IMG/VR virus record: IMGVR_UViG_3300036901_000095
Span: 1-59,277 of that record
Direction: 5' to 3' (one strand)
Source: a virus
Taxonomy: Duplodnaviria > Caudoviricetes
DNA: 59,277 nucleotides
Below the pieces are notes generated by a model. It was not told where the DNA came from, did no database searches, and was given only the letters and a program-made list of their open reading frames with translations. The translations under genes were made by a program, and so were the position numbers. Shown here in pieces: positions 4,146 through 51,941 of this stretch (positions are counted from its first letter, which is position 1; each line of letters opens with the position of its first letter).

Positions 4146-4373
4146 CTAAATTTCAGTCAACATGAAGCATCCGCGCGTCCTGAAATAAGAACTCGCGAAC
4201 CAAGGAACTTTGGTCAACTCGATCATCTGCCAGGTGTCATGGTGCACCTTGACAAGACCGTCATTGGAGGTATCGAGGATTGTATAAGTCTCGCCTTTCT
4301 GAAGGCACAGGAGCCGGTAGCTAAAGAACGTGAAGTTCACATCGCAGACTACGCGGTCACCGAGTTTGAACAT
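4146..4373 (-). CDS. small SH3/KOW-like hypothetical protein
   Basis: MFKLGDRVVC...KGETYTI; ends FMLTEI. Confidence 0.55.
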   Translation of the reverse strand: MFKLGDRVVCDVNFTFFSYRLLCLQKGETYTILDTSNDGLVKVHHDTWQMIELTKVPWFASSYFRTRGCFMLTEI

Positions 4374-4974
4374 GATCTTCCAGACCGAACACATCTGCGT
4401 TGCTTCGTATGACTTGCAGCGGTCCTAGACAGCCCCACTGCACGGCCATCGCCTCAGCGATACCCAGATAGGTGAGACTGCGCATCTTCCATCGATCATC
4501 GGATGGTGGCATACGATGCACTACCGGTTCGCGTCCTTCGACGATGTTCGTTGGTATCAGGTCTGGCAAATTCTTCAGCCATAAGCAGGTTGACTTGGTT
4601 TCTCCATGGCCATACTGCCACGGCTGGATGATCTGGGTTGGCTTCTTGATCCGCGAAGAAATGATCGAGATCGGATTTTCCACGGCGATCCGAGGAATAT
4701 TGGCGTCCATCAGGAGTTGAACAAAATTCAGCGCCTCGATCTGCTCTTGAATTTTGTCTTTGAACCATCTGGCACCACTGACCGCGAGATGCGTGCATGG
4801 CGGATGAGCGACCATCAAATCCCATCCATTATGCAAGATGTCTGTTACGTCGCCCTGATAATGCGGACCAGGAACATCCGTGGGGAGAAGGTCACAACTC
4901 ATGACATCATGGCCAAGTTTTATAAAAGCGTCTCGAACCCGACCGCTGTATTCACAGGCAACTAAAACTCTCAC
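4357..4974 (-). CDS. phage C5-cytosine DNA methyltransferase-like protein
   Basis: VLVACEYSG, HPPCT (PC catalytic motif), VENP; late promoter CATAAATA at 5002-5009. Confidence 0.8.
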   Translation of the reverse strand: MRVLVACEYSGRVRDAFIKLGHDVMSCDLLPTDVPGPHYQGDVTDILHNGWDLMVAHPPCTHLAVSGARWFKDKIQEQIEALNFVQLLMDANIPRIAVENPISIISSRIKKPTQIIQPWQYGHGETKSTCLWLKNLPDLIPTNIVEGREPVVHRMPPSDDRWKMRSLTYLGIAEAMAVQWGCLGPLQVIRSNADVFGLEDHVQTR

Positions 4975-5844: not shown

Positions 5845-6831
5845 TCAAAGAATATCAGCCTGGACACCAAACAGCGTGATACCATCCTGAACTTGACTCA
5901 GACGCCTGAAGGCGATGGCGAAGTGTTCTTCGTTAAGCTCCGCCGCGTAAGGAACGCAGCCGTTCTGGATGGCCGCGACACTGCCGGAGACGAACCCGCC
6001 GAATGGCTCCCAGACGATGTCGCCCTTTTTGCACACCGCGCGAATGATGCGATGCATCAACGCCAATGGCTTCTGGTTCAGATGCAGCGTCTTGGCTCCA
6101 TCCTTGATCCGTTCCTTGCCACGAAGGGCCGGTTCATCCCAGACATTACTTACGCCATACTCAAATTTCCATGTGTACCAAAGTCGTTCCCAGCCACCAT
6201 TGAGCGTAAGCTCTGGTGGGAGTTCGAAATAAGGGCTGCCTTCCGGACGACCATGCGCATTGGCGTAAGACCTCAGACGCTCGAAGACCTCAGCCGGGGG
6301 AAAGTAGAACAGATGATCCCTGGTGAAGTATTTTCGCGTGGCCGCGTTCTTGACACCGCACGCCTCGTTGGTGCGCGTTAATGGCATGCCAGTGCGCAGC
6401 CATTCGACTCGGAGCCAGTCCTGGATCGAGAGATTGTTGATCTTGATGTAATCAGGGTCGCGAACATACTGCACACAGACCTCGGTGACTATCGGGAAGC
6501 CACGCATCGTCTTGCCGTTGCAATTTCCGGCGACGTGACCAATACCCTTGTTCCAGATATTGCAGCCGTGATACTTCCAGCCATGCCGTTCGAGGATCGG
6601 ATGCATGGTCGCCCAGCCCAGTTCGGTGTTCCAGAACCACAATACCGTGGATGACTTCGCGTATTGGCTCCAGGCGGCGATGTGAGGCTCGTAGAGGGCG
6701 GGTAAGTCCTTGACCGTGGTTGGGTCACCGATGAAGCCACCGACGCCGTAGGGGCCGTCTGAGACGATTACCGTGGGGGTCGGCCAGCGCGGATATTGCG
6801 TGAGAGAATCGCCGAGGACGAAATCAAACAT
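5845..6831 (-). CDS. amino (N6A/N4C) DNA methyltransferase, beta class
   Basis: VIVSDGPY catalytic motif; HLNQKP; WEPFGG SAM motif. Confidence 0.85.
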   Translation of the reverse strand: MFDFVLGDSLTQYPRWPTPTVIVSDGPYGVGGFIGDPTTVKDLPALYEPHIAAWSQYAKSSTVLWFWNTELGWATMHPILERHGWKYHGCNIWNKGIGHVAGNCNGKTMRGFPIVTEVCVQYVRDPDYIKINNLSIQDWLRVEWLRTGMPLTRTNEACGVKNAATRKYFTRDHLFYFPPAEVFERLRSYANAHGRPEGSPYFELPPELTLNGGWERLWYTWKFEYGVSNVWDEPALRGKERIKDGAKTLHLNQKPLALMHRIIRAVCKKGDIVWEPFGGFVSGSVAAIQNGCVPYAAELNEEHFAIAFRRLSQVQDGITLFGVQADIL

Positions 6832-7750
6832 CAATTACGTCAGCACCCCCGAGAGGTCGGGTGATTTCCTCGATCTTGTCATCGACTTTCGTGGTAGATA
6901 TGCGGGTTTCTGCTATCGCGGCATAATCTGGATTGAGTTCTATCCCGATGTAATTCCGGTCCAATCTTTTGGCGACGACACCAGTTGTTCCCGATCCACT
7001 GAATGGATCAAGTATAGTATCGTTCAGGGACGAGGACGCGAGAACGCACGGTTCCACAAGCTTTTCTGGATAGGTCGCGAAATGTGCTTCCTTGAAAGGT
7101 TGCACCTGAACTTCCCAAACGTCACGTTTATTGCGTCTGCCGCCTTCCAGACATGTCTTATTATTCTCTAACCCCTTCTCCTGATATTTCTCGATGTTGC
7201 TTTTATTGACGTTAAGTTTTTTCTTTCCCCATGACGTGGCCTTACGGGCATGTTCGTCGGCGTAGATCGCCAGTTCCGAGATCGCCATCCGATCATACTT
7301 ATAGTCATGTTGTTTCGATAGTAAAAAGATGTACTCATGCGCCTTCGTGCAACGATCTGTGATGCTCTCCGGCATTGGATTTGGCTTCGACCAGATGATG
7401 TCCTGGCGTAGATACCATCCGTCGTCTCGGAGGGCGAAGGCTAACATCCAGGGGATGCCAATCAGGTCTTTGGATTTGATTGAGGTACCAGCGAACTTCT
7501 TACTGGAGTAAGTGTCACCGATGTTGATCCACAATGTGCCATCGTCCTTAAGCACCTTGCGCACTAATCTGAACACATCAACCAGCTTCGCGATATACTC
7601 AGCCGGTGATTTCTCGATGCCGATCTGATCTGGACTGTCGTAGTTTCTAAGATTGAAATAAGGAGGACTTGTGATGCATGTCTGAACTGATAATTTCTCC
7701 AATTTTGATAGTTCGATCAAACAATTTCCATGGGTCAATGTAGTTACCAT
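6824..7750 (-). CDS. N4C/N6A DNA methyltransferase, beta class
   Basis: ITSPPY, IIWSKPNPMPES, HFATYP, LDPFSGSGTT. Confidence 0.92.
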   Translation of the reverse strand: MVTTLTHGNCLIELSKLEKLSVQTCITSPPYFNLRNYDSPDQIGIEKSPAEYIAKLVDVFRLVRKVLKDDGTLWINIGDTYSSKKFAGTSIKSKDLIGIPWMLAFALRDDGWYLRQDIIWSKPNPMPESITDRCTKAHEYIFLLSKQHDYKYDRMAISELAIYADEHARKATSWGKKKLNVNKSNIEKYQEKGLENNKTCLEGGRRNKRDVWEVQVQPFKEAHFATYPEKLVEPCVLASSSLNDTILDPFSGSGTTGVVAKRLDRNYIGIELNPDYAAIAETRISTTKVDDKIEEITRPLGGADVIDV

Positions 7751-10859: not shown

Positions 10860-11945
10860 ATGACATTTGTGGACGTCGATGACGTGATTTTGGGTGACAG
10901 CTTAGAACTATTGCAAGACATCGAGAGATTCCCCGACGACACCTTTGACGCCGTTATGACCTCTCCGCCTTACTTTCAACAGCGTCATTATAACGATGTT
11001 GGAATGGGGTTCGAGGTCACTCAACAAGAATATCTCGACAAGCTGCTGCGATTGTTCGAGCAATGCATCCGGGTGGTGAAACCGACCGGCTCGATTGTGT
11101 TCAACCTCGGCGACAAATACGTGGGTGGCTCGCTGGCGCTTCTACCTTACAAGTTCGCCATCGCCGCCAGCGAGAGATTTCCGGTCAGCCTCATTAACAC
11201 GGTGACCTGGATCAAGTCCAATCCGACACCGCGCCAGGACCAGAGCAAGCTGATCAACGCCACCGAGCCGTTCTTCGTCTTTACCAAGACGAAGAACTAT
11301 CATTTCAACTCGGATTTGTATCAGACGCATCTGGACAAGACACCAGACAAAGTCGGTGACAATGTTGGCTCCATGTATTTCACCATGATCGACGCCTCGA
11401 CGCTGAGTGAAGATGAGAAGCAAGCCGCCAGGATCGCCCTCACCAGCGCGATCCAAGAGGCCAAGAACGGCCTGATCACCGGCCTGCGGATGAAGATACG
11501 CGGCATCCACGCATTGGCGTACGGTGGCCTTGAGGGTGGCCGCAACAATCAGATCGAAACCAAGGGGTTCACCATCATCAAATTGCGAGGGAAAACCCTG
11601 AAGAAGGACGTTCTTCGAGAAGATGTCATCGAGACCAACGTCGAAACGATCAAAGGCAACAAGCACCCGGCGATTTTTCCTCAGACGATCATCGAGGAAC
11701 TCATCCGGCTGCTCACGCCAGAGAACGGAATAGTGTTTGATCCCTTCAATGGCAGCGCCACTACATCCATCGCCGCCATGAACACGAATCGGCACTATTG
11801 CGGAATCGAGATTGATCCTGCTTATCTGGCCATTGGTCATGATCGAATTGAGAAGTATGAGATGGATTGTAATGCAACCACGTCGAAAGTCAAACCTGTT
11901 GCGTCCATAACAGAACTAGAATGGATCACGATAGGAACTAACTAA
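10860..11945 (+). CDS. N4C/N6A DNA methyltransferase, beta class
   Basis: MTSPPY, HPAIFP, FDPFNGSATT. Confidence 0.92.
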   Translation: MTFVDVDDVILGDSLELLQDIERFPDDTFDAVMTSPPYFQQRHYNDVGMGFEVTQQEYLDKLLRLFEQCIRVVKPTGSIVFNLGDKYVGGSLALLPYKFAIAASERFPVSLINTVTWIKSNPTPRQDQSKLINATEPFFVFTKTKNYHFNSDLYQTHLDKTPDKVGDNVGSMYFTMIDASTLSEDEKQAARIALTSAIQEAKNGLITGLRMKIRGIHALAYGGLEGGRNNQIETKGFTIIKLRGKTLKKDVLREDVIETNVETIKGNKHPAIFPQTIIEELIRLLTPENGIVFDPFNGSATTSIAAMNTNRHYCGIEIDPAYLAIGHDRIEKYEMDCNATTSKVKPVASITELEWITIGTN

Positions 11946-13604: not shown

Positions 13605-15455
13605 CTAAGCTTGCAACTTTGGTTTACGGCCCCTCTTCGCCGGAATCTTCTTGACGGTGTCCTCGGTCTCGGATTTGTTGTTGGCGTCGTCTCGTTGATC
13701 CATTTCGTTATCGACTTGACGTGCGAATGAGGGACTGACCCCAGCCATTATCAACAGGTCATCACGAATGTTCTGATTTCTTTTTTCCAAATTGAGCACA
13801 CGGGTGAAGCAGTGTTTGATTACCTGAGTTAGGAAACTAAACGGATTACTAGACCTAGATTCATCAAATTGTAGACCTACAGCGGCGAGATGTACTAAAG
13901 CGTGGGCTCGCATTTCGTCGACATACGTGTTTCCTGTCAGATAGATGTAGCCGTTTCTTCTGGCCATGAATGAGCCATACTCGGTCTCCGGACACCAAAC
14001 GCGTCCCTGATAGTCAACGGTCGGTACGTTTTGATGGTGTTCTTTTCCTCTACCGCTTCCACTTCTTTTGCCACCGTGGAAGTCGATGTTCTCGACGTTC
14101 GAGCTATTGGTCCGGGAAAAGATGTTCATCTGATAAATCTGGGTCGGCTTGCCAGACGATTCGATGTCTTGCAGCTTAGCGGAGACCCGATATCCGGCTA
14201 ACGTGCAAAGTGCCGCGAAGGCATCGACGTGTCTGATATCCTTTTGGCAGTACCTGCGTGACACTGTTTTGCACTCCTGTATGGTCCGCCAGCCATCGGC
14301 GTCGATCATCGTGTTGATCAGCAACTCTCTTTGGGCTTGTGACAATGAGAGAATGAACGGCATCGACATGATCCTGTCTCCAGCGACCGCCATGATTTGC
14401 TCAGATATCGCTTTCGACAGATTGAAAGCGACTGTCGGTTTACCGTTCTCTCGATTGTCCCTGTGAAACTCGCTGTATTGTACATCCAAGGTATTCAAGC
14501 AGGCCCTAATCCGCTCCGCGTAGTCGCCCTCGTTCTGAAAGATCGTCATGCGGCAATAATTTCGTTCTTCCGAGAAATAGTAATTGCCCTCGGTCACGAT
14601 CCAGCCGATGAGTTCCACGAAGGCATCACTGTACGTAGTGCTACCATCCTCAACATACTCTCCGGTAAGGATGATCTTATCCTTTTCCAGGAGAAGCTCG
14701 ACCTCCTTCAATCCCTTGTCAGTGACGAACTTATGATGCGGTGTCACCAATGCATCCATGCCAACAACGGTCAGATGAAACATCTTGCCATCGTAATCAT
14801 CCCTGAAGATGGATTTGATGCGAGACCATTTCAGTTTGTCATCATCATACGAGAGGATGATATCATCCTCCGTGATGTCATTGATACCAAGCCAGCCGCG
14901 TTGGGTTAGAGCCTCGGTTTCCTGATCGACACAATATCCTCTCCAGTTTCCTCGATGCGAATACTGTTCCGCGAGCAACATGAACATCTGCGCCAGTCGG
15001 TTCGACATCTTCCCATCGACGAGGCTAAATCGACCATTATGCAAGCCATCACGCCAGTGTGAGCGACCCACCTCGACCGGGTAACCATCGACCACGATGT
15101 AGTGACTAAATGGCGGGAAGTTCGGCTTCGTCACCCATTCCCCTCTGCTCGATTTCTTGCGCCGTTTCTCATCCGTTTCATGCGGCAAGTGTGCGTCGGT
15201 CATCACACGAAACACGACACTTTCAGGATTGATCGTCGAAGGATCAACGATGTTGGTCTTGCTCGACAGCTTGGCTGCCTTGATGAGGATGGTCGCCGCT
15301 AGCAGTTCCGGTGTGAGTAGATCGAGCGATGAGATCACGGCGTCGAAACTTGAATACTCAGGTGAAATAAAATAACAGAAACTTGCTTTGCTGCGGCCAA
15401 TCTCGACCAATAGTTCTTTATTCGAAATGTACTTGACTTTAACCGGAGGAATCAT
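13605..15455 (-). CDS. gp55: late-transcription sigma factor (T4 gp55-like), intein-containing
   Basis: KYISNKELL; exteins join as YSHRGNWRGY|TYVDEMRAHAL...QFDESRSSNPFSFLTQ...EKRNQNIRD. Confidence 0.88.
   Translation of the reverse strand: MIPPVKVKYISNKELLVEIGRSKASFCYFISPEYSSFDAVISSLDLLTPELLAATILIKAAKLSSKTNIVDPSTINPESVVFRVMTDAHLPHETDEKRRKKSSRGEWVTKPNFPPFSHYIVVDGYPVEVGRSHWRDGLHNGRFSLVDGKMSNRLAQMFMLLAEQYSHRGNWRGYCVDQETEALTQRGWLGINDITEDDIILSYDDDKLKWSRIKSIFRDDYDGKMFHLTVVGMDALVTPHHKFVTDKGLKEVELLLEKDKIILTGEYVEDGSTTYSDAFVELIGWIVTEGNYYFSEERNYCRMTIFQNEGDYAERIRACLNTLDVQYSEFHRDNRENGKPTVAFNLSKAISEQIMAVAGDRIMSMPFILSLSQAQRELLINTMIDADGWRTIQECKTVSRRYCQKDIRHVDAFAALCTLAGYRVSAKLQDIESSGKPTQIYQMNIFSRTNSSNVENIDFHGGKRSGSGRGKEHHQNVPTVDYQGRVWCPETEYGSFMARRNGYIYLTGNTYVDEMRAHALVHLAAVGLQFDESRSSNPFSFLTQVIKHCFTRVLNLEKRNQNIRDDLLIMAGVSPSFARQVDNEMDQRDDANNKSETEDTVKKIPAKRGRKPKLQA
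13929..14933 (-). mobile_element. intein (335 aa) with LAGLIDADG homing endonuclease
   Basis: Starts CVDQETEALTQRGW, block B VTPHHKF, LIGWIVTEG and MIDADG motifs, ends VWCPET...YLTGN followed by Thr+1. Confidence 0.92.
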
Positions 15456-15544
15456 GATTTTCGTTTCTTTTTTATGGTGAACTTCAACATAACAGAAACG
15501 CGCCTGAGAATACAACCCCATGAAATATCTGGCTTTAATTCCAC

Positions 15545-15552
15545 CATAAATA
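15545..15552 (+). promoter_or_regulatory. T4-type late promoter
   Basis: CATAAATA before the baseplate operon. Equivalent boxes: 5002(-), 22144, 26709, 31108(-), 31167, 33223, 38346(-), 40627, 45721, 47388(-), 48945(-), 51401(-), 51921(-), 55344, 56245, 58454. Confidence 0.75.
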
Positions 15553-15578
15553 GCAAGATACAATGGGATTAAGAACAG

Positions 15579-16517
15579 ATGAGTGGTTTTCAATCTGACA
15601 GCGCGGCATCAGCGCCATCGACTGGATTTCTTGGCGGCGCGCAATCCGACAGTGCCGCATCGGCTCCGGTCACGCAGGTACCGGTCGCTGGCAACACGGT
15701 GGCGGGCGCGGCGTCGCCCATTGGCAGTGCCACCTCGGGTAATCCCATAACCGGCAGTGCGATCACTGCTTCTCCCGACATGCGCATCAGACTGGCGGCG
15801 TTGAACCCTGCGGCAGTTTATCAGAATTCTCCCATTATGTCAATTTTAAGTCAGACCAATGGCATGTTATTTCCTTACACACCATCGATCACGGTGACGC
15901 AAGGCGTGGATTACGCAGCCATACAATTGGTACACTCTAACACTGATTATCAGGCGTATACCCGTACACCATCGGTAAAAATCTCGATAAATGGCAAATT
16001 CACTGTGCAGAATCAGCGCGAAGGTCAGTACGCGATGGCGGCGATTCATTTTCTCCGAACGGTGTCGAAATCTTACTTCGGTGAGAAGGACGCGATGACG
16101 ACCAATTCAGCGGCGAGTCCTTTGACGAACACCGCCAATACGCCAATCAGCGGTCTCATGTCGCCATCGAGCAATGCTGGCGGAGGCAACGCCGGACTGC
16201 CACCTCCTGTTCTGTTGTTCAGTGGTTACGGAAACTTAATGTTCAATAACTTAAGAGTCATTCTGACTAACCATACATACACCTTCGATGAAACCATGGA
16301 CACGGTTCCGGTGATTATTTCTTCACAGGGTTTCAACAGTCTTGGCGCGCTGCTGGGCGGAGCGACATCGGGAGGGATCGTGCGTCTGCCAGCCATGTTC
16401 ACGCTATCCTGTGAACTGACCGTGATACAGACACCGAAACGCATGAGAAAAGTCTTCAGTTTCGAGGATTTCGCCAACGGAAAACTGATGAACAGCACTG
16501 ACGGAGGATGGATTTAA
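15579..16517 (+). CDS. baseplate/tail-tube-initiator-like virion protein
   Basis: FPYTPSI...IHFLRTVSK...PPPVLLFSGYG motifs seen in myophage baseplate operons; late promoter. Confidence 0.65.
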   Translation: MSGFQSDSAASAPSTGFLGGAQSDSAASAPVTQVPVAGNTVAGAASPIGSATSGNPITGSAITASPDMRIRLAALNPAAVYQNSPIMSILSQTNGMLFPYTPSITVTQGVDYAAIQLVHSNTDYQAYTRTPSVKISINGKFTVQNQREGQYAMAAIHFLRTVSKSYFGEKDAMTTNSAASPLTNTANTPISGLMSPSSNAGGGNAGLPPPVLLFSGYGNLMFNNLRVILTNHTYTFDETMDTVPVIISSQGFNSLGALLGGATSGGIVRLPAMFTLSCELTVIQTPKRMRKVFSFEDFANGKLMNSTDGGWI

Positions 16518-19657: not shown

Positions 19658-22141
19658 ATGACTTTAAATAAATCCAATCCGGCATTCACGCCAAAATCAA
19701 ACAGCAGCATCGCGCTGTTGCCCTATCCTTATATTGGTCTCGTAAAGAACAACACCGATTCACAAAACATGGGTCGACTCGGGGTGTGGATTCCCGAGCT
19801 TTGCGGCGATCCGCTGGACCAGGGTTCGTGGATCATTTGTAGTTATTGTTCTCCTTTCGCTGGCGCGACAAACCTCAATGAACTTGAAAACTATCAGGAC
19901 CCGAACACGCAGATCGTCAGCCAGCAATCCTATGGCTGGGTGGGAATCCCGCCTGACCTCAACAACGAGGTCATGGTGGTGTTCGCTTGTGGAGACATCA
20001 ACAAGGCTTATTGGGTTGGTTGCACATATCAACAAAACATGAACCACATGGTGCCGGGTATTTCCGTTGATACCACGTACCCAAATCAACAGGATATCGA
20101 TGGTGCGCCATTACCGACCATTGTTCCGGTCATGGAATATAACAAAGCGGGTGTGACTGGGTCTCCGAACAACGTGAATCGTCCGGTGTTTCAACCGCTG
20201 GCCACCGGTTTGATGCGGGAAGGCTTGTTGAACGATTTGGAACGTGGCGCGGCCTCGACCTCGATGCGTCGTGAAGCACCGCCGCTGATGTCGGGCTGGT
20301 TATCGCCACGCGGGAACACTATCCACATCGATGACAACGCGCAGGATGAATTCATCCGCTTTCGCACTCGTTCCGGTACCCAAATTTTAATCCACGAGAC
20401 AACCGGTTACATCTACATGAATTCGAAGAACGGTAATTCATGGTTCGAGATTTCCGATTCCGGGATCAATGGTTACACATCCGGTCCATTGAGCATGCGC
20501 GCGGTTGGCGACATCAATCTCATAGCCGGTGGCAACATGAATCTGGACGCCGCCAACATCAACATGCGCGCCACCAATCAGATCAACATGGGCGCGGTTA
20601 CCATCCAGATCGGTGCCAGTGGCGCACTGACCATGTCGGCTGGCACCAACATCAATTCAGCGGCGGCGGGCATCTGGGCGCGATCAGGCAGCACCATTCA
20701 GGACAACGCCGGAATCGTCCCGCCCGCGACTCCACCAACCAGCGTCACGGTCTCGGACACGAAGGCGATCAGTCCCACGGGCATCTGGACCTATGGTGCG
20801 ACCACCTTGAATTCCATCGCCAGTGTCATTCCCATGCACGAACCATGGCCGGGGCATCCGAATGCCAATATTCCACCCTTTCCAACAACGATTGTTCCCC
20901 AGCCCAATGTCGGGGGGCAGGGCAACGGCTCAAACGGTGGCGGGACGACCTACGCCCCTAACGCAGGCTCAGCCCCCGGATCATCCGGATCATCCACGCC
21001 ATCTAATGGTGCGATTGCCCCATCGAATCCGGCGACCAATTCATGCACGTTCGGCATCCCGAACACGGCTCCTATTTCCACGGTCAATTTCAACGCGATT
21101 CAGACCGCGTCACAACAGGTCAGCGGACTCCCCGCCAATCCTTTCGCCACCCTGCTGGCGTTCGCCAATATTGAGTCAACCTTTAACTCGTCCGCAGGAC
21201 CGGTATCAGGTCCAGGCGCGAAGGGACTGTTTCAGTTTATCGATGGAACATGGGACTGGATCGTCAGTCAGGCTGGCGCGCAATACGGTGTTCCCACTAC
21301 CAGTGGAGCGGTGTTCAATCCTGGCTATAATGCGCTGATGGGCGCGGCATACATGGTAAGTAACATGAAGGTACTCTCGAATAATGGATTAACCCCGGAT
21401 GCCGGAAATCTGTATCTCCTGCATTTCTTTGGACCGGGCGGCGGACAACTTGGAACCAGGGCCGCTGGAGGAATCACGTTTCTGAAGACTCTTGCCACTC
21501 AACCGTCCGGTATAGCAGCGTCATTATTCCCTAATCAGGCGGCTGGTGCGATCAACCACAATAATTTTTACAATCGCGCCAATAACGCTCCTTACACGAT
21601 GCAACAGGTTCATGACAATCTCAGAACCATCATCAACGACAAAGTCACGGCTTATCAGACGCAGGTAGGTTTGCCCGCGCCATGTGACAGAGTAAAAGGC
21701 AATACCACTGGGGTGTCCAACAAAATCAATCAGTCAAGTCCACAGGCAGCCGTCGCCAGCGCGCAAGGACTGACCGGACGATATTGGGGACGCAATGAGG
21801 AATGCGTTTCGTTGGTTCAATCGCCGATTCTCAATTTACAGAATACCTCGACATGGACCAAGGGTAGTAGTGATTTGGTCGCCAATCCGCCGCCTCCAGG
21901 AACAGCCATCGCGACCTTCGCGCCGAATGGTACATACACCAACCAGTATGGTCTGTCGCACGCGGCGATTTATCTCGGCCCAGCGGACAGCGGTAATGGC
22001 ATCAAAGTACTCGAACAATCCAATGGCCATCCGGCGCATATCAATCAATATCAGGTCGGCAATTCGCCTGGTTACGGCGCATGGGTCAAGGGCGTGGAGC
22101 AAGACGCGCGTAACTATTCCGTCGTCAACTACAACAACTGA
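19658..22141 (+). CDS. gp5: baseplate central spike (gp5/VgrG-like) with lytic transglycosylase and C-terminal amidase domains
   Basis: OB fold GLVKNNTD..MGRL.VWIP...PPDLNNEVMVVF; SLT IESTFN...AKGLFQFIDGTW; ECVSLVQ...GTAIATF...SHAAIYLG. Confidence 0.85.
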   Translation: MTLNKSNPAFTPKSNSSIALLPYPYIGLVKNNTDSQNMGRLGVWIPELCGDPLDQGSWIICSYCSPFAGATNLNELENYQDPNTQIVSQQSYGWVGIPPDLNNEVMVVFACGDINKAYWVGCTYQQNMNHMVPGISVDTTYPNQQDIDGAPLPTIVPVMEYNKAGVTGSPNNVNRPVFQPLATGLMREGLLNDLERGAASTSMRREAPPLMSGWLSPRGNTIHIDDNAQDEFIRFRTRSGTQILIHETTGYIYMNSKNGNSWFEISDSGINGYTSGPLSMRAVGDINLIAGGNMNLDAANINMRATNQINMGAVTIQIGASGALTMSAGTNINSAAAGIWARSGSTIQDNAGIVPPATPPTSVTVSDTKAISPTGIWTYGATTLNSIASVIPMHEPWPGHPNANIPPFPTTIVPQPNVGGQGNGSNGGGTTYAPNAGSAPGSSGSSTPSNGAIAPSNPATNSCTFGIPNTAPISTVNFNAIQTASQQVSGLPANPFATLLAFANIESTFNSSAGPVSGPGAKGLFQFIDGTWDWIVSQAGAQYGVPTTSGAVFNPGYNALMGAAYMVSNMKVLSNNGLTPDAGNLYLLHFFGPGGGQLGTRAAGGITFLKTLATQPSGIAASLFPNQAAGAINHNNFYNRANNAPYTMQQVHDNLRTIINDKVTAYQTQVGLPAPCDRVKGNTTGVSNKINQSSPQAAVASAQGLTGRYWGRNEECVSLVQSPILNLQNTSTWTKGSSDLVANPPPPGTAIATFAPNGTYTNQYGLSHAAIYLGPADSGNGIKVLEQSNGHPAHINQYQVGNSPGYGAWVKGVEQDARNYSVVNYNN

Positions 22142-22158
22142 TACATAAATAACAAATC

Positions 22159-22287
22159 ATGCCACCACAATTGAAAAATGATGAAGATCAGAAAGACAAG
22201 GTTGGTTTCGCGCTCGATGAGGTCGAGGACGAACCCGAGACGCAACCCGTCGAACAATCACAATATTACTACGATGGATGTTGCTGA
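22159..22287 (+). CDS. small acidic protein with FALDE motif (42 aa)
   Basis: ATG 7 nt after CATAAATA; not in the ORF track. Confidence 0.55.
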   Translation: MPPQLKNDEDQKDKVGFALDEVEDEPETQPVEQSQYYYDGCC

Positions 22288-22440
22288 ATGGCGACCATAC
22301 CCTCACATATCATGACACCAGCCGAAGCCGTCGAACTGATGCGCCAGGCACTCAAACCGAAATCCAAAACTTTTGCTTTGGACGAACTTGAAGACGAAGA
22401 CGATGATCCCATCGTCTTTCCTGATGAGTTTAGTTATTGA
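22288..22440 (+). CDS. small acidic protein with FALDE motif (50 aa)
   Basis: ATG immediately follows the previous stop. Confidence 0.55.
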   Translation: MATIPSHIMTPAEAVELMRQALKPKSKTFALDELEDEDDDPIVFPDEFSY

Positions 22441-22484
22441 ACACTGACACCATTCCTTGTATCATCCCCTGATTGGAGAGAACT

Positions 22485-23492
22485 ATGACATTGAAAATTA
22501 GTGAATTAGTCCGTGATGGTTACGAACGAGTGGTTAGTTTTTCCGACGACAGTGGATTTCAGGCGTATATCGCCATTCACAGCACGATTCTGGGACCGGC
22601 CCTCGGTGGCTGTCGCATCAAGTCCTACGCCTCGACCGATGATGCCCTGACCGATGTCCTGCTCTTGTCAAAAGGCATGACTTATAAAAGTAGCATCGCC
22701 GGATTGAACTTCGGTGGCGGCAAATGCGTTGTGATGGCCGAAAAGGCGACCCGCGAGATCATGCTCAAGGTTGGCGAGGCGGTCGAATATTTCAACGGTC
22801 TCTACGTTACCGCCGAGGATGTCGGCACCACTCTGGCGGATATTCAGACCGCCGCTGAAGTCACTGATTATACCGTCCATCTCGATGGTTCCAGCATGAC
22901 CGCCCGAGGCGTGCTGGCCTGCATGAAGACCGCCGTGAAATTTCACGGTGGATGGGGCGAAGAACTGAATGGCCTGCCCATTTGGGTCCAGGGACTGGGC
23001 AAGGTTGGCATGGACTTAGCCGAACGCATTGCCGCGCATATTCCAGATCACCTCAATCTGATGGTGTCTGATTTGCGTCCCGAGGCCGTGACCCAGGCTG
23101 AAGCCATGGGTGCCAGGGAACTCACCGAGGGCGACAAACGCTTCGTCGCCATTTACGCGCCGTGCGCGATGGGTCAGGTGATCAATGCCGACAATGTCAA
23201 CAAGGTGAACTATTCGATCATCTGCGGATCGGCCAACAACCAGTTATTGCATGATGATTACGCCGAGGTTCTGCGTCAGCGGGATGTCCTGTACTGCCCA
23301 GAATTCCTTGTCAATGCCGGTGGCATCATTAACGCGAGTTATGAATTCGAGCGTGACTTCGACCAGCAGAAATGCGAGGAACACACCGATTACCTCAGTG
23401 AGGTATTGCTCAAAGTTCTGACGATGGCGAAGGACGACAACACCACCCCCCTGAAGATCGCCATGCAACTGGCTGAAGCCGGACTGGAATGA
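22485..23492 (+). CDS. Leu/Val/Phe (ELFV family) amino-acid dehydrogenase
   Basis: AIHSTILGPALGGCR, GMTYK, GGGK, TAEDVGT, QGLGKVG, GSANNQL, VNAGG. Confidence 0.93.
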   Translation: MTLKISELVRDGYERVVSFSDDSGFQAYIAIHSTILGPALGGCRIKSYASTDDALTDVLLLSKGMTYKSSIAGLNFGGGKCVVMAEKATREIMLKVGEAVEYFNGLYVTAEDVGTTLADIQTAAEVTDYTVHLDGSSMTARGVLACMKTAVKFHGGWGEELNGLPIWVQGLGKVGMDLAERIAAHIPDHLNLMVSDLRPEAVTQAEAMGARELTEGDKRFVAIYAPCAMGQVINADNVNKVNYSIICGSANNQLLHDDYAEVLRQRDVLYCPEFLVNAGGIINASYEFERDFDQQKCEEHTDYLSEVLLKVLTMAKDDNTTPLKIAMQLAEAGLE

Positions 23493-23493
23493 C

Positions 23494-23823
23494 ATGTTAA
23501 AAACAATTGGATTGATTTTCGCGCTGAGCACGAGTATCGCTTACGCGCAGGACGATGTTTGGTATACGGTCCATCAGGCGGGCTGCGTGTCATTGTCCGA
23601 TGCCTCGAAAGGAATGCCCGACATTCAGGAGCCATGGACCAAGCCATCTGATTTACTGGCCTCGGCGGTCAGTCATGGCATGACCTTGAAAGCGCACATG
23701 GAAAGCGAGGATAACACGTCGGTGATGTATGTATTCACCGGCCATGATGACGCGCCGTTGAACATCGTCATGATCAAAGGTCGCGAGTTGTGTGAAAAGG
23801 CGTTGGAAGCCATCTCCAAGTAA
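23494..23823 (+). CDS. secreted hypothetical protein
   Basis: Signal peptide ending in AYA. Confidence 0.65.
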   Translation: MLKTIGLIFALSTSIAYAQDDVWYTVHQAGCVSLSDASKGMPDIQEPWTKPSDLLASAVSHGMTLKAHMESEDNTSVMYVFTGHDDAPLNIVMIKGRELCEKALEAISK

Positions 23824-23838
23824 CTGGAAGGAACTGTC

Positions 23839-24111
23839 ATGGCGTTCGAACTGGATGATCTCCCGCCGTTCATCGACGTGGTGCGGGCCACCCCTGTGAA
23901 AGTCAATAAGTTCGGACCTGTCTTGCAGATGACGCAGGACATCATGAAATATGATGACCTTGAGATGTCACTCGCTCTCAAGGTTCCCGTGGAGACCTAC
24001 CGGCGATGGAAGGCGTTCGATACGGTGCATTTTCCATTTGCGCGAAACATACTGGATCAACTGCTCGCGGAAACGAAGCCTCACATTGAACATTACGGAG
24101 ACGAAACATGA
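23839..24111 (+). CDS. small protein, N-terminal MAFELDD
   Basis: GAAGGA RBS; ATGA overlap with the next gene. Confidence 0.65.
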   Translation: MAFELDDLPPFIDVVRATPVKVNKFGPVLQMTQDIMKYDDLEMSLALKVPVETYRRWKAFDTVHFPFARNILDQLLAETKPHIEHYGDET

Positions 24112-24440
24112 CATTCAGTCTTGATGGCACTCATGATGCGCAACACGATGAGCGAGAGGCTCTCTACAAGGCTCTCAACGAGTTTTTCCTGCCGATGACG
24201 ACGGTTTACATGAAGCGTTACGTCGGACGGCCAATTCGCCCAATCATCGAAGACACCAACGTGCCATTCACACTCGATGACTCGCAAGCCTCGGTCAGCC
24301 TGGTGGGATCGCCACACCCAACCAAATTCGCGAGCCATATCAGCCGAATGATGACCGGATTCCTGAAAGACGAATTGCAGATTGTCCATTGTAGTCATTA
24401 TGCAGCCATCATAGCCAAACCACCAACGGAGATCGTATGA
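24108..24440 (+). CDS. small protein, N-terminal MTFSLDG and internal FTLDD
   Basis: GGAG RBS; ATGA overlaps at both ends. Confidence 0.65.
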   Translation: MTFSLDGTHDAQHDEREALYKALNEFFLPMTTVYMKRYVGRPIRPIIEDTNVPFTLDDSQASVSLVGSPHPTKFASHISRMMTGFLKDELQIVHCSHYAAIIAKPPTEIV

Positions 24441-24616
24441 CATTCAATCTTGATGACGGTAAACCGGGGAGCAATCCTCTACTTTTCGAACCCAACCTGC
24501 CCCTGCAATTAGGCGGCACATTCCGGATCATCATCCCCTCGTTCCCAGGGGTTTACCTGAGCAGGGATGTCATCATTCCTCCTGGTGGACTGGAAATCAT
24601 AGTCACGGAGTGTTGA
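24437..24616 (+). CDS. small protein, N-terminal MTFNLDD (59 aa)
   Basis: GGAG RBS, ATGA overlap; below the ORF-track length cutoff. Confidence 0.6.
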   Translation: MTFNLDDGKPGSNPLLFEPNLPLQLGGTFRIIIPSFPGVYLSRDVIIPPGGLEIIVTEC

Positions 24617-24617
24617 C

Positions 24618-24947
24618 ATGTTGAGTCGTCGCACGCTGTTCATTGGCCTGACCGGATTGTTGGTGGCTCCAGCCATCATCAAGGCGTCCTCATTGATGCC
24701 ATTGTCTCAGAAGAGCAATGGTTTGCTTGGCTTCGGTGATCCGCGCTACAATTATGAAGTCTTGTTCGATCACGAGACGGGTGAGAGAATGTCGCGCAGG
24801 ACCGACACTGCGACGCTCTGGCAGCCATCCCCTCGGCGAGACCAATGGTTTGAATTCGGACCTCAGGTTGATGGCTCGAAGGGTTTCACCATCTACAAGG
24901 CGAATCGTGTCCACACGACACAGATGGTCAGCGGTAATTTCGCATGA
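24618..24947 (+). CDS. twin-arginine signal protein
   Basis: MLSRRTLFIG...APAIIKASSLMP. Confidence 0.65.
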   Translation: MLSRRTLFIGLTGLLVAPAIIKASSLMPLSQKSNGLLGFGDPRYNYEVLFDHETGERMSRRTDTATLWQPSPRRDQWFEFGPQVDGSKGFTIYKANRVHTTQMVSGNFA

Positions 24948-25114
24948 GCTTCAATCTTGACGAGGGTGAACCGGTCGATATCCATGACCTGATCGTGCTG
25001 GTGGAACCGAGCGAGTCCCTTGCGCGGAAATTCGCTGATATGGAAAACTGGCGGGGAGAAATAGCAACGAGTCTTGGCTGGTTTGTGAAGAATGACGACC
25101 CTCGACCCGTCTGA
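24944..25114 (+). CDS. small protein, N-terminal MSFNLDE (56 aa)
   Basis: ATGA overlap with the upstream gene; overlaps the map start. Confidence 0.55.
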   Translation: MSFNLDEGEPVDIHDLIVLVEPSESLARKFADMENWRGEIATSLGWFVKNDDPRPV

Positions 25115-25877
25115 CTGGGACGGCATGCGAGCCGCTGGGCAACTGGCGGCGCGAGTCCTCGACATGATCCATCCGCACGTCGTTGAAGGTGTCACCACCG
25201 ATCAACTGAACACGCTCTGCCATGACTTCATCATCGCCCATGACGCGATTCCGGCCCCACTGAATTACAAGGACTTCCCAAAATCCATTTGCACGTCGAT
25301 CAATCACGTCGTCTGCCATGGTATCCCGTCCACCCGAAAACTGCTCGATGGTGACATCCTCAACATCGATGTGACGGTGATCCTTAATGGCTGGCATGGT
25401 GATAGCTCGCGCATGTATAGCGTCGGTGATCTATCCACCAAGGCGCGCAATCTGATGGACATCACCTATGAGGCCATGCTGCTCGGCATCGCGGCGGTCA
25501 GGCCCGGTGCCACTCTGGGCGACGTTGGTTTCGCCATACAGAGCTTCGCGGAAAGTCATCGCTACAGCGTGGTGCGGGATTTCTGCGGGCATGGCATTGG
25601 CCGTTTGTTCCACGAACCTCCGCCGATCCTGCATTACGGCAAGCCGAGTCAGGGGCTCGTTTTGCAGCCTGGCATGTTCTTCACCATTGAGCCGATGCTC
25701 AACATCGGTGGCTGGGAGGTCAAGACCCTGGCCGACAAATGGACTTCCGTCACCAAGGATCGGTCATTGTCCGCTCAGTACGAACACACGGTGGGCGTGA
25801 CCGAGACCGGCCATGAGATATTCACTCTTTCTTTCGCAGGATTGCATAAGACGCATGTACCAATTCAAAAAGGGTGA
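25092..25877 (+). CDS. map: type I methionine aminopeptidase
   Basis: CTSINHVVCHGIP, NIDVT, HGDSSRM, GHGIG..FHE, FTIEPM, AQYEHT. Confidence 0.96.
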   Translation: MTTLDPSDWDGMRAAGQLAARVLDMIHPHVVEGVTTDQLNTLCHDFIIAHDAIPAPLNYKDFPKSICTSINHVVCHGIPSTRKLLDGDILNIDVTVILNGWHGDSSRMYSVGDLSTKARNLMDITYEAMLLGIAAVRPGATLGDVGFAIQSFAESHRYSVVRDFCGHGIGRLFHEPPPILHYGKPSQGLVLQPGMFFTIEPMLNIGGWEVKTLADKWTSVTKDRSLSAQYEHTVGVTETGHEIFTLSFAGLHKTHVPIQKG

Positions 25878-26037
25878 TAAGATCAAGTTCCATGACTCGC
25901 CCACTATTTGGACCATCGACGAAGTACTGCCGAATGATTGTTTCAGTCTGAAAGAACATTGGTGCGCTCACCCGTTTCATGTGTCCATTCTGATTCTGGT
26001 TCAATCAGCGTCGTTTTCCCTCGACGACATCGACTAG
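25855..26037 (+). CDS. small SH3/KOW-like protein ending in FSLDDID
   Basis: MYQFKKGDKIKF start; same architecture as 4146-4373. Confidence 0.55.
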   Translation: MYQFKKGDKIKFHDSPTIWTIDEVLPNDCFSLKEHWCAHPFHVSILILVQSASFSLDDID

Positions 26038-26256
26038 CGTTTCCACCATGCCAGCATGCGATAGGCGGATTGCTGGCAATCACTTCCATCCATCCTCAGT
26101 CCCAGCCAGATCAAGGGGCAGAGGGGCAGGAGAACGATGGTCTTGATGGCCATACGACCGACATTGGTTGGAATCGCGTCGAAAATGCTATTAAGCGTGT
26201 CTCGTGGCATGGCATGAACTCCTTGACAAAATCCGAGGCTAGGCTACAAATTCGTC

Positions 26257-26706
26257 ATGATCAAGAGCCTCGATCCATTTGATGCCATCGCTTGGGATTT
26301 CGATGGCACGCTCATCAATCATCCCAAGTCTTCGTTGATGCATCAGTACATCAAGGCTCATCCCCAGAAGAAGCACGTCATCATCACCTTCCGCACGCAT
26401 GGCGCGCAATACCTGATTTTTGAGGAGATGCAGTTTCTTTATCCAGGCTCACCTGGGAAGGATCGTTTTGGTGACGTGATCAACATCAGCAATCTGGCGT
26501 GGCTTAATTTCACGCGGTATGATCGCATGCGTTATCATGGGCGGCTGAAGGGACCACTGACGCCGCACGAGGAATATTACATCAACTGGAAAGGCTCGAT
26601 CTGCAAGCAGCATGGTTTGTCGGTGCTGGTGGATGATCGTACCGACCATGTGGCGTCCGGTTGTGAGAAACACGGCATCGTGTTCATTCATCCCGACGAT
26701 TTGTAA
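26257..26706 (+). CDS. HAD-superfamily hydrolase
   Basis: WDFDGTL, ITFR, K...LVDD; TTGACA promoter immediately upstream. Confidence 0.75.
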   Translation: MIKSLDPFDAIAWDFDGTLINHPKSSLMHQYIKAHPQKKHVIITFRTHGAQYLIFEEMQFLYPGSPGKDRFGDVINISNLAWLNFTRYDRMRYHGRLKGPLTPHEEYYINWKGSICKQHGLSVLVDDRTDHVASGCEKHGIVFIHPDDL

Positions 26707-27672: not shown

Positions 27673-28080
27673 TCAGTCGATCTTGTAGTCGCCGGTCCAA
27701 GTCCCCGTGGAACCGGTCGGGGTCTGTTTGTCGGTGAACGTCCCTCCACCGGAGAGATTCTCGAACATACCGGTGCCCCCGATGAATTGCCACTTGCCTT
27801 CCATGATCAACTCTTCTCCCCTCAACCTCACGGTGGCCTCGCTCGTTCCGTAGCTGGTATCACCGGTCGGATGGGTATTTCTGAAGTAGCCTCGCATCGT
27901 GCCATTGCCGCCCACGGTATCAATGATTCCCCACAAGGTCAGTATCGATCCTTCGAACTCCGGCTCGGTCGTTTCCTGCGGGCCGCGCGCCATCATCAAT
28001 CCGATCTGATGATCGGCTGGACCGTTTATCATGGTTTGTGTTTCGATTGTCACCGTGTAGCCGCCATTGAATTTTGGCAT
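27673..28080 (-). CDS. beta-barrel (allene-oxide-cyclase/dirigent-like) hypothetical protein
   Basis: GKWQFIGGTGMFENLSGGGTF motif; RBS before MPKFNGG. Confidence 0.5.
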   Translation of the reverse strand: MPKFNGGYTVTIETQTMINGPADHQIGLMMARGPQETTEPEFEGSILTLWGIIDTVGGNGTMRGYFRNTHPTGDTSYGTSEATVRLRGEELIMEGKWQFIGGTGMFENLSGGGTFTDKQTPTGSTGTWTGDYKID

Positions 28081-28176
28081 TGTCGGACCCCTTCGTTCAT
28101 GGATGCGGAGAGCGGCGGCAAACTCTCCGATTTCCCACAGATCGTCAACAGATATTCCCATGAGCGAACTCTAAAT

Positions 28177-45760: not shown

Positions 45761-46174
45761 ATGATTTGTTCATCATGTGAAAAAGACCTAAACGAAACTG
45801 AGTTCTACATAAAAAAGGAAAAAGGAAAGGAAAAAATTGGACACCAAAGCTATTGTAAAAAATGCTTTAATAAATTCTGTGTAGAGAGATGGGTAAAAAG
45901 AAAAAAGGATGCCATTGAGTATAAAGGCGGAAAGTGCGAATTATGCGGGTACAAAAAGTACTATGGTGCATTGGTTTTTCACCATGTTGATCCGATGCAA
46001 AAAGATTTTGAATGGACTCATCTTCGGAAAAAAAGCTGGGATAAAATAAAAGCAGAATTGGATAAATGTATGATGCTATGTTCCAATTGTCACTCAGAAA
46101 TACACGCCAAGGACGCGACAGGTTTCGACATCGAGGCGGGTATGGCGTTGCCGACAGGTCTCGAACCTGCATAA
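45761..46174 (+). CDS. HNH homing endonuclease (Zn-finger type)
   Basis: CSSC, YCKKC, KGGKCELCGY, FHHVDP, KCMMLCSNCHSEIH; AT-rich; CATAAATA at 45721. Confidence 0.88.
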   Translation: MICSSCEKDLNETEFYIKKEKGKEKIGHQSYCKKCFNKFCVERWVKRKKDAIEYKGGKCELCGYKKYYGALVFHHVDPMQKDFEWTHLRKKSWDKIKAELDKCMMLCSNCHSEIHAKDATGFDIEAGMALPTGLEPA

Positions 46175-46221
46175 AAAGCCGGATTAGAACTCCGGTGCCT
46201 CTCCAATTAGGCTACGGCAAC
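46143..46221 (-). tRNA. tRNA-Arg(TCT)
   Basis: GTTGCCG/CGGCAAC acceptor, CCGGA-GTTCTAA-TCCGG, A20, G73, encoded CCA; own TTGACA-N17-TAGGTT promoter. Confidence 0.85.
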
Positions 46222-46333
46222 ACAACTTCAACCTACGTCATTTCACAAGAACTGTCAACATCCGAGAGGCTAAATAAACGGGTAAATTTTCGCCAACTTC
46301 TGTATAGTGATCAAAACATAGTGAGAAGTTCAT

Positions 46334-46888
46334 ATGATCGAGAACGAAGAAAAAATCGTCCTGAGATACTCGCCTGAACTCGAACACGACCTGATAACCA
46401 AATATGGTTGGCATGACATCAGGCAAGGCTACTTCAACAGCAATAACCGAATTCGCGAGATCACCCATCAGTCTGGTCGTATGAACCATGTTTTCTCATT
46501 CAAGCAGCGGCTGCCAAACGGGCATAACATCGAGATCGAATCAGATGAGATCACCAAACAGGACTTTGACCATATCTGGCAGTTTACCGAGAACCGGCTG
46601 ATCAAGCGGCGGGTCACATGCTTCATCACCATCGACGATCCGAAAAATCATGAGGGACATTCGGCGATCCGGTGGGACATTGACTTTCCACAATGGGAGA
46701 GCGGCGTAAAGCATTTCGGCATGGCGGAGGTGGAAATGCCGGTCTACATGGAGAAGCCGCCATTCATTCTCGCGGATATCGCGCCTCACGTAGTCTATGA
46801 AGTGCCGCGATCCGACAACCGATTCTCAGCCAAGAAGCTCAGTGACGAAAAACATGCCAGGAAAATGGCGAAAGAGCTTAGCTTATGA
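46334..46888 (+). CDS. CYTH (triphosphate tunnel metalloenzyme) domain protein
   Basis: IENEEK, IRQGY, RIRE, IEIE, KRR, WDIDF, AEVEM. Confidence 0.8.
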   Translation: MIENEEKIVLRYSPELEHDLITKYGWHDIRQGYFNSNNRIREITHQSGRMNHVFSFKQRLPNGHNIEIESDEITKQDFDHIWQFTENRLIKRRVTCFITIDDPKNHEGHSAIRWDIDFPQWESGVKHFGMAEVEMPVYMEKPPFILADIAPHVVYEVPRSDNRFSAKKLSDEKHARKMAKELSL

Positions 46889-47383
46889 TGGCCCTTCCTC
46901 ATCGTCATATTCTTCATCCGCCGAATAATGTTCTTCTTCTTCGAGATCGGCTTCGGTCAGGGTGCGCACGTAGCGAAAATCCTGCCCGAGCGTTAGATGA
47001 GTTCGAGTCGTCAGCAATACATGGCTGTCGGCGCTCACCGCGTCTCGATCCATGATCTGATTGTCCTCCACCAGCACATCGGTATCGAGGCAGTTTATCT
47101 CGATGACATAGGCCAGTGCCGCACGGCCATAATCATGCACCAGTTGGGTGAACCAGAACTCCACGTCTCCGGTCACATGCAGGCCATAGACGCCAACGAC
47201 ATTTGGGCCGAGGCCGACCTGATCGAGTTCGCCGGTCTCGATCACGTTTTCTTTCTCCCAGACCACCCGTTCACAGGTGCCCAGATCGGTATAAATGTCG
47301 GTTGCTCGATCATCCGCCACGTCGATGGGCAGAATGGGTCGTTCGCTCTCACATAAGCGCATCCAACGTCGGAGTTCATGCAT
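46883..47383 (-). CDS. acidic late protein, putative internal head protein
   Basis: MHELRRWMRLCE; TAAATA 4 nt before ATG. Confidence 0.55.
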   Translation of the reverse strand: MHELRRWMRLCESERPILPIDVADDRATDIYTDLGTCERVVWEKENVIETGELDQVGLGPNVVGVYGLHVTGDVEFWFTQLVHDYGRAALAYVIEINCLDTDVLVEDNQIMDRDAVSADSHVLLTTRTHLTLGQDFRYVRTLTEADLEEEEHYSADEEYDDEEGPS

Positions 47384-47599
47384 CCATTATTTACTTTTTC
47401 ATGGAACTATCGCGAAAAAATCCCTGATTGACCTGAAATTATCAGTGGATTAGACTGATCGTCTGAACTCAGGAGGACGGTGTCATGAAAGTCCTAGAAA
47501 CAGGTGACGGCGACGTGAGTGATAAGGCGATACCGAAAACCACCCCACGATATTTTGTTCCGCTAACCTCTGCTGGCACCATTTTTTCTTCCTCCATCG

Positions 47600-48142: not shown

Positions 48143-48145
48143 ATT

Positions 48146-48613: not shown

Positions 48614-48617
48614 TGGT

Positions 48618-48693: not shown

Positions 48694-48745
48694 CATGAAC
48701 CCAAAATTGTTCGATGATTTAAGTTGAAAAGGGATGGATACGATT

Positions 48746-51916: not shown

Positions 51917-51941
51917 ACCGTATTTATCAAAAGGAGAGAGT

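Follow-up and report, generated by a model that had tools for sequence, protein, structure and literature searches.

An F-x-L-D peptide motif repeated across small proteins of a peat jumbo-phage gene block: a candidate docking tag

The virus record IMGVR_UViG_3300036901_000095 of the IMG/VR database (Duplodnaviria; Caudoviricetes) consists of one contig of 59,277 bp, and the whole of this stretch of DNA, hereafter the window, was analyzed. At 22207-26028, all on the plus strand, eight copies of the peptide motif F-x-L-D-[D/E/G], hereafter the tag, are encoded in seven small open reading frames (ORFs) of 42-110 aa that lie around a gene for methionine aminopeptidase (Map). The motif is far above chance and is restricted to one gene block. 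It was first pointed out in a model's reading of the DNA letters made without database searches (the sequence-only reading), and every motif string listed there is present at its place. That reading had also named a small ORF at 4146 as similar; this does end FMLTEI, but the ending does not fit the motif and is not counted here.

The block (22159-26706) comprises 12 co-directional plus-strand genes, packed head to tail with starts that overlap preceding stops, and it lies directly after the gene for a hub/tail-lysozyme protein (19658-22141; phrog_13211, 3.7e-40; SLT and Phage_base_V domains). Its first two ORFs are short, acidic and tagged: 22159-22287 encodes 42 residues (isoelectric point, pI, 4.05) with G-FALDE at 22207-22221 (residues 17-21) and the C-terminus YYYDGCC, and 22288-22440 encodes 50 residues in which T-FALDE (22372-22386, residues 29-33) is followed by LEDEDDD and an aromatic-rich tail. 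An untagged amino-acid dehydrogenase of the Glu/Leu/Phe/Val family (22473-23492; Pfam ELFV_dehydrog_N 1.9e-20, ELFV_dehydrog 7.9e-14) and an untagged 109-aa ORF with a Sec-signal-like N-terminus, recognized by eye (23494-23823), precede three tagged genes in a row. ORF 23839 (23839-24111, 90 aa) starts MAFELDD, with the tag at 23845-23859, and has a helix-turn-helix (HTH)-like body. ORF 24108 (24108-24440, 110 aa) starts MTFSLDG (tag at 24114-24128) and carries a second copy, P-FTLDD (24267-24281), directly after an in-frame GTG; it is possibly a fusion of two units of ~55 aa. ORF 24437 (24437-24616, 59 aa), the start of which overlaps the previous stop (ATGA), begins MTFNLDDGKPG, with the tag at 24443-24457.

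ORF 24618 (24618-24947, 109 aa) is untagged, has an N-terminus that by eye resembles a twin-arginine translocation (Tat) signal (SRRTLF) and, with a pI of 9.9, is the only basic protein encoded in the block. The acidic, 56-residue ORF 24944 (24944-25114) starts MSFNLDEGEPV (tag at 24950-24964) and is followed by the untagged type I Map (25092-25877; Pfam Peptidase_M24 1.9e-51; TIGR00500 303.6 bits against a cut-off of 171). The last tagged ORF (25855-26037) encodes 60 residues, or 74 if translated from an ATG at 25813, and ends S-FSLDD-ID, with the tag at 26014-26028. An untagged HAD-like protein of 149 aa (26257-26706; DxDGT motif by eye, weak HAD-IB match, E = 0.09) closes the block. Each small protein of the block has either an export-signal-like N-terminus, as judged by eye, or the tag, and the three enzymes are untagged. 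The tagged proteins are acidic (pI 4.0-6.0).

Two of the enzymes deserve a comment of their own. The dehydrogenase shows GxGxxG and GGGK motifs on reading by eye and appears to be of the Leu/Phe/Trp type; its best NCBIfam model is the Trp dehydrogenase ScyB (226 bits, under the cut-off of 600). No relatives of the dehydrogenase or of ORF 23839 were found in IMG/VR, and a metagenome scan for the dehydrogenase returned one 2.6-kb contig of 99.85% identity together with three relatives at 37-38% identity that are without the block. As for Map, an unrelated T7-like viral contig (L001, 183-818, plus strand) carries four overlapping ORFs of ~50 aa just upstream of its own Map gene. These are clear paralogues with a common W-x-x-W...EE..LE...F.D.WY motif, so that this is a second phage with small acidic ORFs before Map.

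The tag is found at three kinds of position. Four copies follow directly after Met and one small residue (ORFs 23839, 24108, 24437, and 24944), three are internal (mid-ORF in 22159 and 22288, and the FTLDD of ORF 24108), and one stands two residues from the C-terminal end of the ORF that stops at 26037. Counted by ORF, the tag occupies residues 2-7 in four of the seven and is internal or C-terminal in the other three, with ORF 24108 having both kinds. The last three residues are L-D-D in four copies, L-D-E in three and L-D-G in one. In all eight, the residue before Phe is small (in order G, T, A, T, P, T, S, and S). Since the internal copies keep it too, this residue belongs to the motif, and the unit is better written [small]-F-x-L-D-[D/E/G], a tag of six residues. 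The sequence-only reading had observed that the M-[A/T/S]-F starts would suit processing by Map; the internal copies speak against the small residue being solely a requirement of Map. It had further likened the tag to Phe N-degrons read by ClpS. ClpS recognizes F, L, W or Y as the first residue, and this comparison falls, as removal of Met would expose A, T or S and never Phe, and three of the copies are internal.

How far is this from chance? Along the six frames of the window F.LD[DEG] occurs 12 times, eight of them in the 3.9-kb block and always there in the frame of the ORF. A genome-wide count against shuffled controls, which had been suggested as a check, was made for the window and gave eight copies in the 12 block proteins (1,434 aa) and none in the other 77 proteins (17,046 aa). 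Shuffling within the block proteins produced a mean of 0.09 copies and a maximum of two, and 0/5000 shuffles reached eight. When N-termini alone are considered, F3, L5 and D6 are common to four of 84, and none of 300 column shuffles reached four. In ~969 kb of other viral loci (L001-L072) there are 18 six-frame matches with no genuine N-terminal copy, and a 297-kb relative has three matches in 84,651 aa, as expected by chance. A relaxed form, [FLIMVWY]-x-[LIMV]-D-[DENG] with a small residue in front, shows no excess outside the block (seven observed, 5.5 expected). Just past the block, a 162-aa ORF on the minus strand (27673-28161) starts MGISVDDL, a relaxed look-alike of the MAFELDDL of ORF 23839 that may be coincidence.

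At the nucleotide level the copies are less uniform than the peptide. Phe is encoded by TTC six times and TTT twice, Leu by CTC and CTT three times each and by CTG and TTG once each, and Asp by GAT five times and GAC three times, which bears out the variation in codons reported earlier. Because synonymous codons differ at F, L and D, selection acts at the peptide level. The starts at 24108 and 24437 are, as had also been reported, identical at 18/19 nt, and both are preceded by ACGGAGA; those at 24437 and 24944 agree at ~25/32 nt over the segment encoding F-N-L-D-[DE]-G-[KE]-P. These three starts share DNA beyond what the peptide needs, so part of the repetition reflects common descent or recombination at the gene head.

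The proteins that carry the tag had been described as unrelated, and at the sequence level they are: once the motif is taken out, the 36 pairwise local alignments of the nine small ORFs all stay at or below z = 2.4. For all nine, the ORF's own frame is the best of the six, with per-codon scores of 0.16-0.29 compared with 0.27 for Map. No family match was found for them in Pfam, PHROGs, NCBIfam (above chance level) or PADLOC, and searches for homologues of ORFs 24108, 23839, and 23494 returned only self-like or near-identical entries. The body of ORF 23839, from about residue 20, matches HTH_3/HTH_31 clusters in an atlas of structures and by language-model features, a lead to an HTH-like fold; for ORF 24618 the atlas gave no usable match. 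A 790-aa protein (P0003) contains 10 separate stretches that match residues 32-75 of ORF 23839 and so looks like an array of repeats of that HTH-like unit. In single-sequence AlphaFold2 (AF2) models, residues 1-12 of ORF 24944 are coil (pLDDT ~53) ahead of one confident helix at 24-49, and ORF 24108 has a mean pLDDT of 42 with both of its tags in low-confidence coil. Predicted secondary structures differ among the tagged bodies, and the tags seem, on these weak predictions, to lie outside folded parts, on exposed ends or linkers.

As no homologues were found, conservation was judged in near-identical variants from peat only. One of these is the 2.6-kb metagenome contig (L162), which is 99.85% identical and differs at four positions, all nonsynonymous and all in tagged ORFs. 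Two of the four fall in one tag and change MAFELDD to MALELDN (F3L and D7N); the probability that at least two of four would fall in tag codons is ~0.007. The remaining tags are unchanged or without coverage in the variants. When this contig is combined with contigs of three DNA runs, the tagged ORFs have seven nonsynonymous changes and one synonymous, and the hub and enzymes have three and eight (Fisher p = 0.02). The excess, in small numbers, fits fast-evolving host-interaction proteins engaged in an arms race, and it also fits relaxed constraint.

The window itself encodes proteins of a baseplate. Besides the hub it has wedge proteins, one of which (1,127 aa) matches phrog_10646 at 4e-301, a gp25-like protein, a gp55-like late sigma factor, an SbcD-like nuclease, several DNA methyltransferases, NUDIX and MazG-like enzymes and a Pol III alpha-like fragment. 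The best named relatives of the hub are from jumbo phages, namely Sinorhizobium phage Phosso (38%), Agrobacterium phage Atu_ph07 (36%), and the Pseudomonas PA5oct group (36%), and the local gene order (late sigma, virion protein, wedge, virion protein, hub) matches that of Atu_ph07. No head genes were found in the 59-kb window, which is for this reason taken to be one piece of a far larger jumbo myovirus with a T4-like core and an Atu_ph07/PA5oct-like baseplate. The studied stretch is present in public runs of 20 studies, all of them peat, permafrost or moss metagenomes, and one run contains a record of 91.5 kb.

The core of the T4 late promoter, ATAAATA, is present in 14 copies in the window, for example at 15546, 22145, 31168, 33224, 40628, 45722, and 58455 on the plus strand and at 51407, 31114, and 5008 on the minus strand, and 11 of these copies have a gene start on the same strand 0-33 nt downstream of them (P ~7e-15). 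The boxed gene starts include virion, gp25-like and wedge/baseplate genes and also the first tagged ORF, 22159, 7 nt upstream of which stands the T4-type late-promoter-like box CATAAATA (22144-22151, plus strand). With this box before ORF 22159 and a gp55-like sigma factor in the window, the block is most likely a late transcription unit that starts right after the hub gene. Contigs from an RNA library are 100% identical over parts of the block, including 22172-22469 and 24051-24462, a match that is no proof of transcription, strand or ends. For the genes starting at 22159, 31180, and 40644, only 5-9 nt separate the end of the box from the ATG, which suggests leaderless or near-leaderless late mRNAs. 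The late-sigma ORF (13605-15593, minus strand) is itself unusual, with 662 aa against 277 aa for the Atu_ph07 homologue; late-sigma PHROGs match it in several separate stretches, and a duplication, a fusion or a mis-set start may explain its length.

Several further features of the window stand apart from the block. Four DNA methyltransferase genes lie within 8 kb (4357-4974, 5845-6834, and 6824-7750 on the minus strand and 10860-11945 on the plus strand), three of them of the N6_N4_Mtase family. A full-length class A bacterial RNase P RNA is encoded at 51941-52375 on the minus strand (RF00010, 144 bits against a gathering threshold of 100, model positions 1-367), and the beginning of an HNH endonuclease ORF (51419-52000; Pfam HNH_3) overlaps the 3′ part of this RNA. 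In a literature search for RNase P RNA in huge phages, the term "RNase P RNA" was absent among the matches listed. Four tRNAs (Arg-tct, Arg-ccg, Thr-cgt, and Arg-acg; within 46143-48822, minus strand) and a PTH2 peptidyl-tRNA hydrolase cut by the contig end (58856-59275, plus strand) make up a translation-related set, to which Map also belongs.

Is the tag found in other phages? In 10 related jumbo-phage records (~3.1 Mb) nothing matches a DNA pattern for Met-small-F-x-L-D-[D/E], and 12 phage loci with Map contain no tagged ORFs. In IMG/VR, the DNA pattern for M-T-F-N-L-D-[DE] is found in 88 stretches, of which 80 were examined. There the in-frame matches either fall within longer ORFs or open proteins that are unrelated (a recurrent ~180-aa family, phrog_11717; phrog_17490; an RNase H-like protein; and two long ORFs), and at no locus of the 80 does another N-terminal copy lie within 2 kb. 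The longer pattern F-N-L-D-[DE]-G-[KE]-P gave a single stretch, with an internal F-N-F-D-E-G-E-P. The phrog_11717 proteins (function unknown; L073, L088 and ~25 further IMG/VR loci) start MTFNLDDYEPV and have an acidic ...EEPF tail; their N-terminus resembles the MSFNLDEGEPV of ORF 24944, and the proteins are otherwise unrelated.

What kind of element would have these properties? A short and sharp motif, selected at the peptide level, independent of position, placed on exposed segments and carried by unrelated proteins that are produced together is the signature of a docking tag, and a docking function in this general sense is probable. For the more specific reading preferred here, a lineage-specific docking or propeptide tag with its closest counterpart in the capsid-targeting sequence (CTS) of T4 internal proteins, a probability of about 0.4 is estimated. 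Under this reading [small]-F-x-L-D-[D/E] would be a short linear tag kept by selection on seven mostly acidic small proteins. The alternation of F and L, followed by acidic residues, could allow an extended peptide to dock by strand addition into one partner. The favored partner would be the assembling virion, into which the tag would carry changeable accessory proteins, one of them HTH-like, for co-injection. The three L-D-E copies would fit the L/I-x-E site of a gp21-type prohead protease, and the L-D-D copies might be targeted and left uncut. Loading into the virion, with or without cleavage, rests on the analogy with T4 and is itself put forward tentatively, with the odds against it. Of the address tag that the sequence-only reading had proposed, the motif, its selection as a peptide, its confinement to one block and its placement at termini or in coil on unrelated proteins have all stood; a receptor, binding and processing are what we infer.

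The comparison with T4 is by published description, and homology is not claimed. According to excerpts of two papers, the internal proteins of T-even phages are highly diverse and have as their sole common part an N-terminal propeptide of 10-19 residues that directs them to the scaffolding core; the propeptide is cut off by gp21 after L/I-x-E, an Asp at the cut position stops cutting without stopping targeting, and Alt carries a C-terminal propeptide as well (PMC3012670, PMC9026906). The variable internal-protein loci are described, again in an excerpt, as flanked by conserved elements that promote shuffling (PMC2839356). The CTS of IPI, IPII, IPIII and more than 30 T-even variants, as far as these excerpts describe it, thus resembles the present tag in being a short common peptide on unrelated, fast-changing small proteins, encoded in clustered variable arrays with DNA-level similarity at the common ends and made late. 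The hydrophobic-x-acidic end of the tag is also that of the gp21 site, and gp21-type prohead proteases (Peptidase_S77) are encoded in 5/5 related jumbo phages. That the block follows the virion, wedge and hub genes, in the order of Atu_ph07, counts for a connection with the particle.

A considerable list of observations weighs against this reading. The tag has another sequence from the CTS and six residues instead of 10-19; T4 targeting sequences are N-terminal, and four of the eight copies here are not (three internal, one C-terminal); and only three copies end in the Glu that cleavage would call for. The carriers are acidic, unlike the CTS-bearing proteins of T4 relatives, which are basic in the published excerpts, and the block lies behind a baseplate hub gene. 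No gene for a receptor, scaffold, portal or protease was found in the 59-kb window. No analogous common N-terminal tag was found in the 297-kb relative, at 60 hub loci or downstream of the Atu_ph07 hub, and because the N-terminal DNA pattern is missing from the 10 related records, loading into virions gains no support from the clade. The copy in ORF 23839 is not strictly constrained, as F3L and D7N in the near-identical contig demonstrate, and the nonsynonymous excess would be expected equally of non-coding or decaying ORFs. The extra DNA identity of the three starts and the low confidence of the single-sequence AF2 models belong on the same side.

Payloads of extracellular contractile injection systems (eCIS; PVC and Afp) were considered as a second precedent for loading. 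According to excerpts of the literature, their genes lie downstream of tail/spike genes, and varied cargo is brought into a phage-tail-like particle by a signal that is N-terminal and probably unstructured (PMC11495950, PMC11297309). As described there, however, the signals are 20-50 residues long, hydrophilic, slightly positive and without a conserved sequence (PMC11297309), whereas the tag here is sharp, acidic and six residues long. With neither a Pvc15-like AAA ATPase nor any other member of the AAA ATPase family found in the window, an eCIS payload signal was rejected.

Among the rival explanations, one keeps the docking function and moves the partner to the cytoplasm, where the tag would bind a hub such as the sliding clamp, RNA polymerase or a late sigma co-factor, or an AAA+ protease or adaptor of host or phage, and the proteins would be recruited regulators, or decoys in competition with the clients that the hub normally has. 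This is unlikely, though several observations suit it. Bacterial clamp-binding motifs likewise occur at N-terminal, internal and C-terminal positions, and T4-family clamp-binding tails are of the same hydrophobic-plus-acidic type; these motifs and SSB tails are short, tolerate any position and bring many clients to one hub. One carrier is predicted to be HTH-like, the carriers are acidic as cytoplasmic inhibitors are, and a clamp-dependent machinery is plausible, given the Pol III alpha-like fragment and the late sigma factor of the window. The residue order is unlike that of the clamp motifs, however, and the window has no gene for a clamp, ClpS or an adaptor. The 77 window proteins outside the block, which include those of replication and transcription, are without the motif, and it stays at chance level in the 297-kb relative, so that no normal client bearing it is known.

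It is also unlikely that there is no receptor at all and that the copies are leftovers of serial duplication or recombination at a common gene head, made up of the ribosome site and the first codons, in a quickly evolving array of accessory genes. The bodies would then have diverged or been replaced, with the short head persisting for translation start or as a first strand. The near-identity of the 24108 and 24437 starts together with their ACGGAGA, the more extended similarity of the 24437 and 24944 starts, the tandem and tightly packed arrangement, the likeness of ORF 24108 to two units joined at an in-frame GTG and the tag mutated in a near-identical strain would all be expected of such a history, and the conserved elements flanking the T4 internal-protein loci offer a precedent in the excerpt available (PMC2839356). 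It does not explain the four copies that lie away from a gene start, and the five copies other than those at the three similar starts are written in different codons. The small residue before F is kept in all eight, internal ones included, and for a five-residue vestige to survive eight times while everything else is erased would need selection on the peptide.

A pathway for modified peptides is very unlikely. The tagged ORFs would be its precursor peptides, and the F-x-L-D of the tag would be the leader box of class I lanthipeptides, an analogue named by the sequence-only reading. The four-residue string is indeed literal in two ORFs, FNLD/FxLD being the box named in the portions of the lanthipeptide literature consulted; an extended peptide anchored by F and L would be bound in a comparable way, ORF 22159 ends YYYDGCC and ORF 22288 has its aromatic-rich tail. 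The analogy fails on context. No LanB, LanC, radical SAM, YcaO or PqqD-like/RRE-type family was found among 83 window proteins (Pfam), and the surroundings are phage structural genes. Most carriers are small proteins of 56-110 aa and not leader-core peptides, with predicted helices or an HTH-like body, 0-2 Cys and no Ser/Thr/Cys-rich core, and in four ORFs the box begins as early as residue 3.

Export is more improbable still, in the form that the tag lets acidic small proteins hitchhike on ORF 24618 through the Tat route. This ORF is the block's sole basic protein, has the SRRTLF N-terminus and is flanked by the two most similar tagged ORFs, with stop and start codons touching or overlapping; its signal was seen by eye only, and the periplasm would be an odd place for an HTH-like tagged protein. 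Chance, or ORFs called in non-coding sequence, can be given next to no weight: the small ORFs do lack homologues and their variation is mostly nonsynonymous, but 0/5000 shuffles reach eight copies, the motif is always in the ORF frame and all nine ORFs are best in their own frame.

Was the tag new, as had been claimed? For its sequence the word undescribed holds, since the literature searched gave no description of the motif in phages among the matches listed for FxLD/FNLD, which were lanthipeptide or unrelated uses. A search on the capsid-targeting sequence and jumbo-phage propeptides returned work on T4, phiKZ and SPN3US only. The word does not extend to the principle, since T4 already provides a case of changeable cargo marked by a single short tag.

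Giant-phage genomes consist in large part of small ORFan proteins that homology can hardly assign, and a common tag is among the few sequence features able to group them by destination. Should the repetition prove a vestige of duplication, it would still document the reuse of gene heads in accessory arrays. If the docking or loading preferred here is correct, seven candidate injected or hub-binding effectors would be in hand at once, and the tag would serve as a search key for further effectors in a phage lineage widespread in peat and permafrost. The T4 principle of a targeting sequence plus changeable cargo would then reach a distant jumbo-phage clade, with a shorter and position-independent tag. 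The boldest form of the proposal, that a peat jumbo phage evolved its own portable tag independently of T4 and with it, placed at either terminus or within the chain, loads rapidly diversifying small acidic proteins, among them a DNA-binding one, into the virion for entry into the host along with the DNA, is doubtful. If it is true, the tag would be the shortest known virion-loading signal and a minimal handle for packaging foreign cargo, and in uncultured giant phages it would be the label of an entire class of proteins injected to act against the host or its defences.

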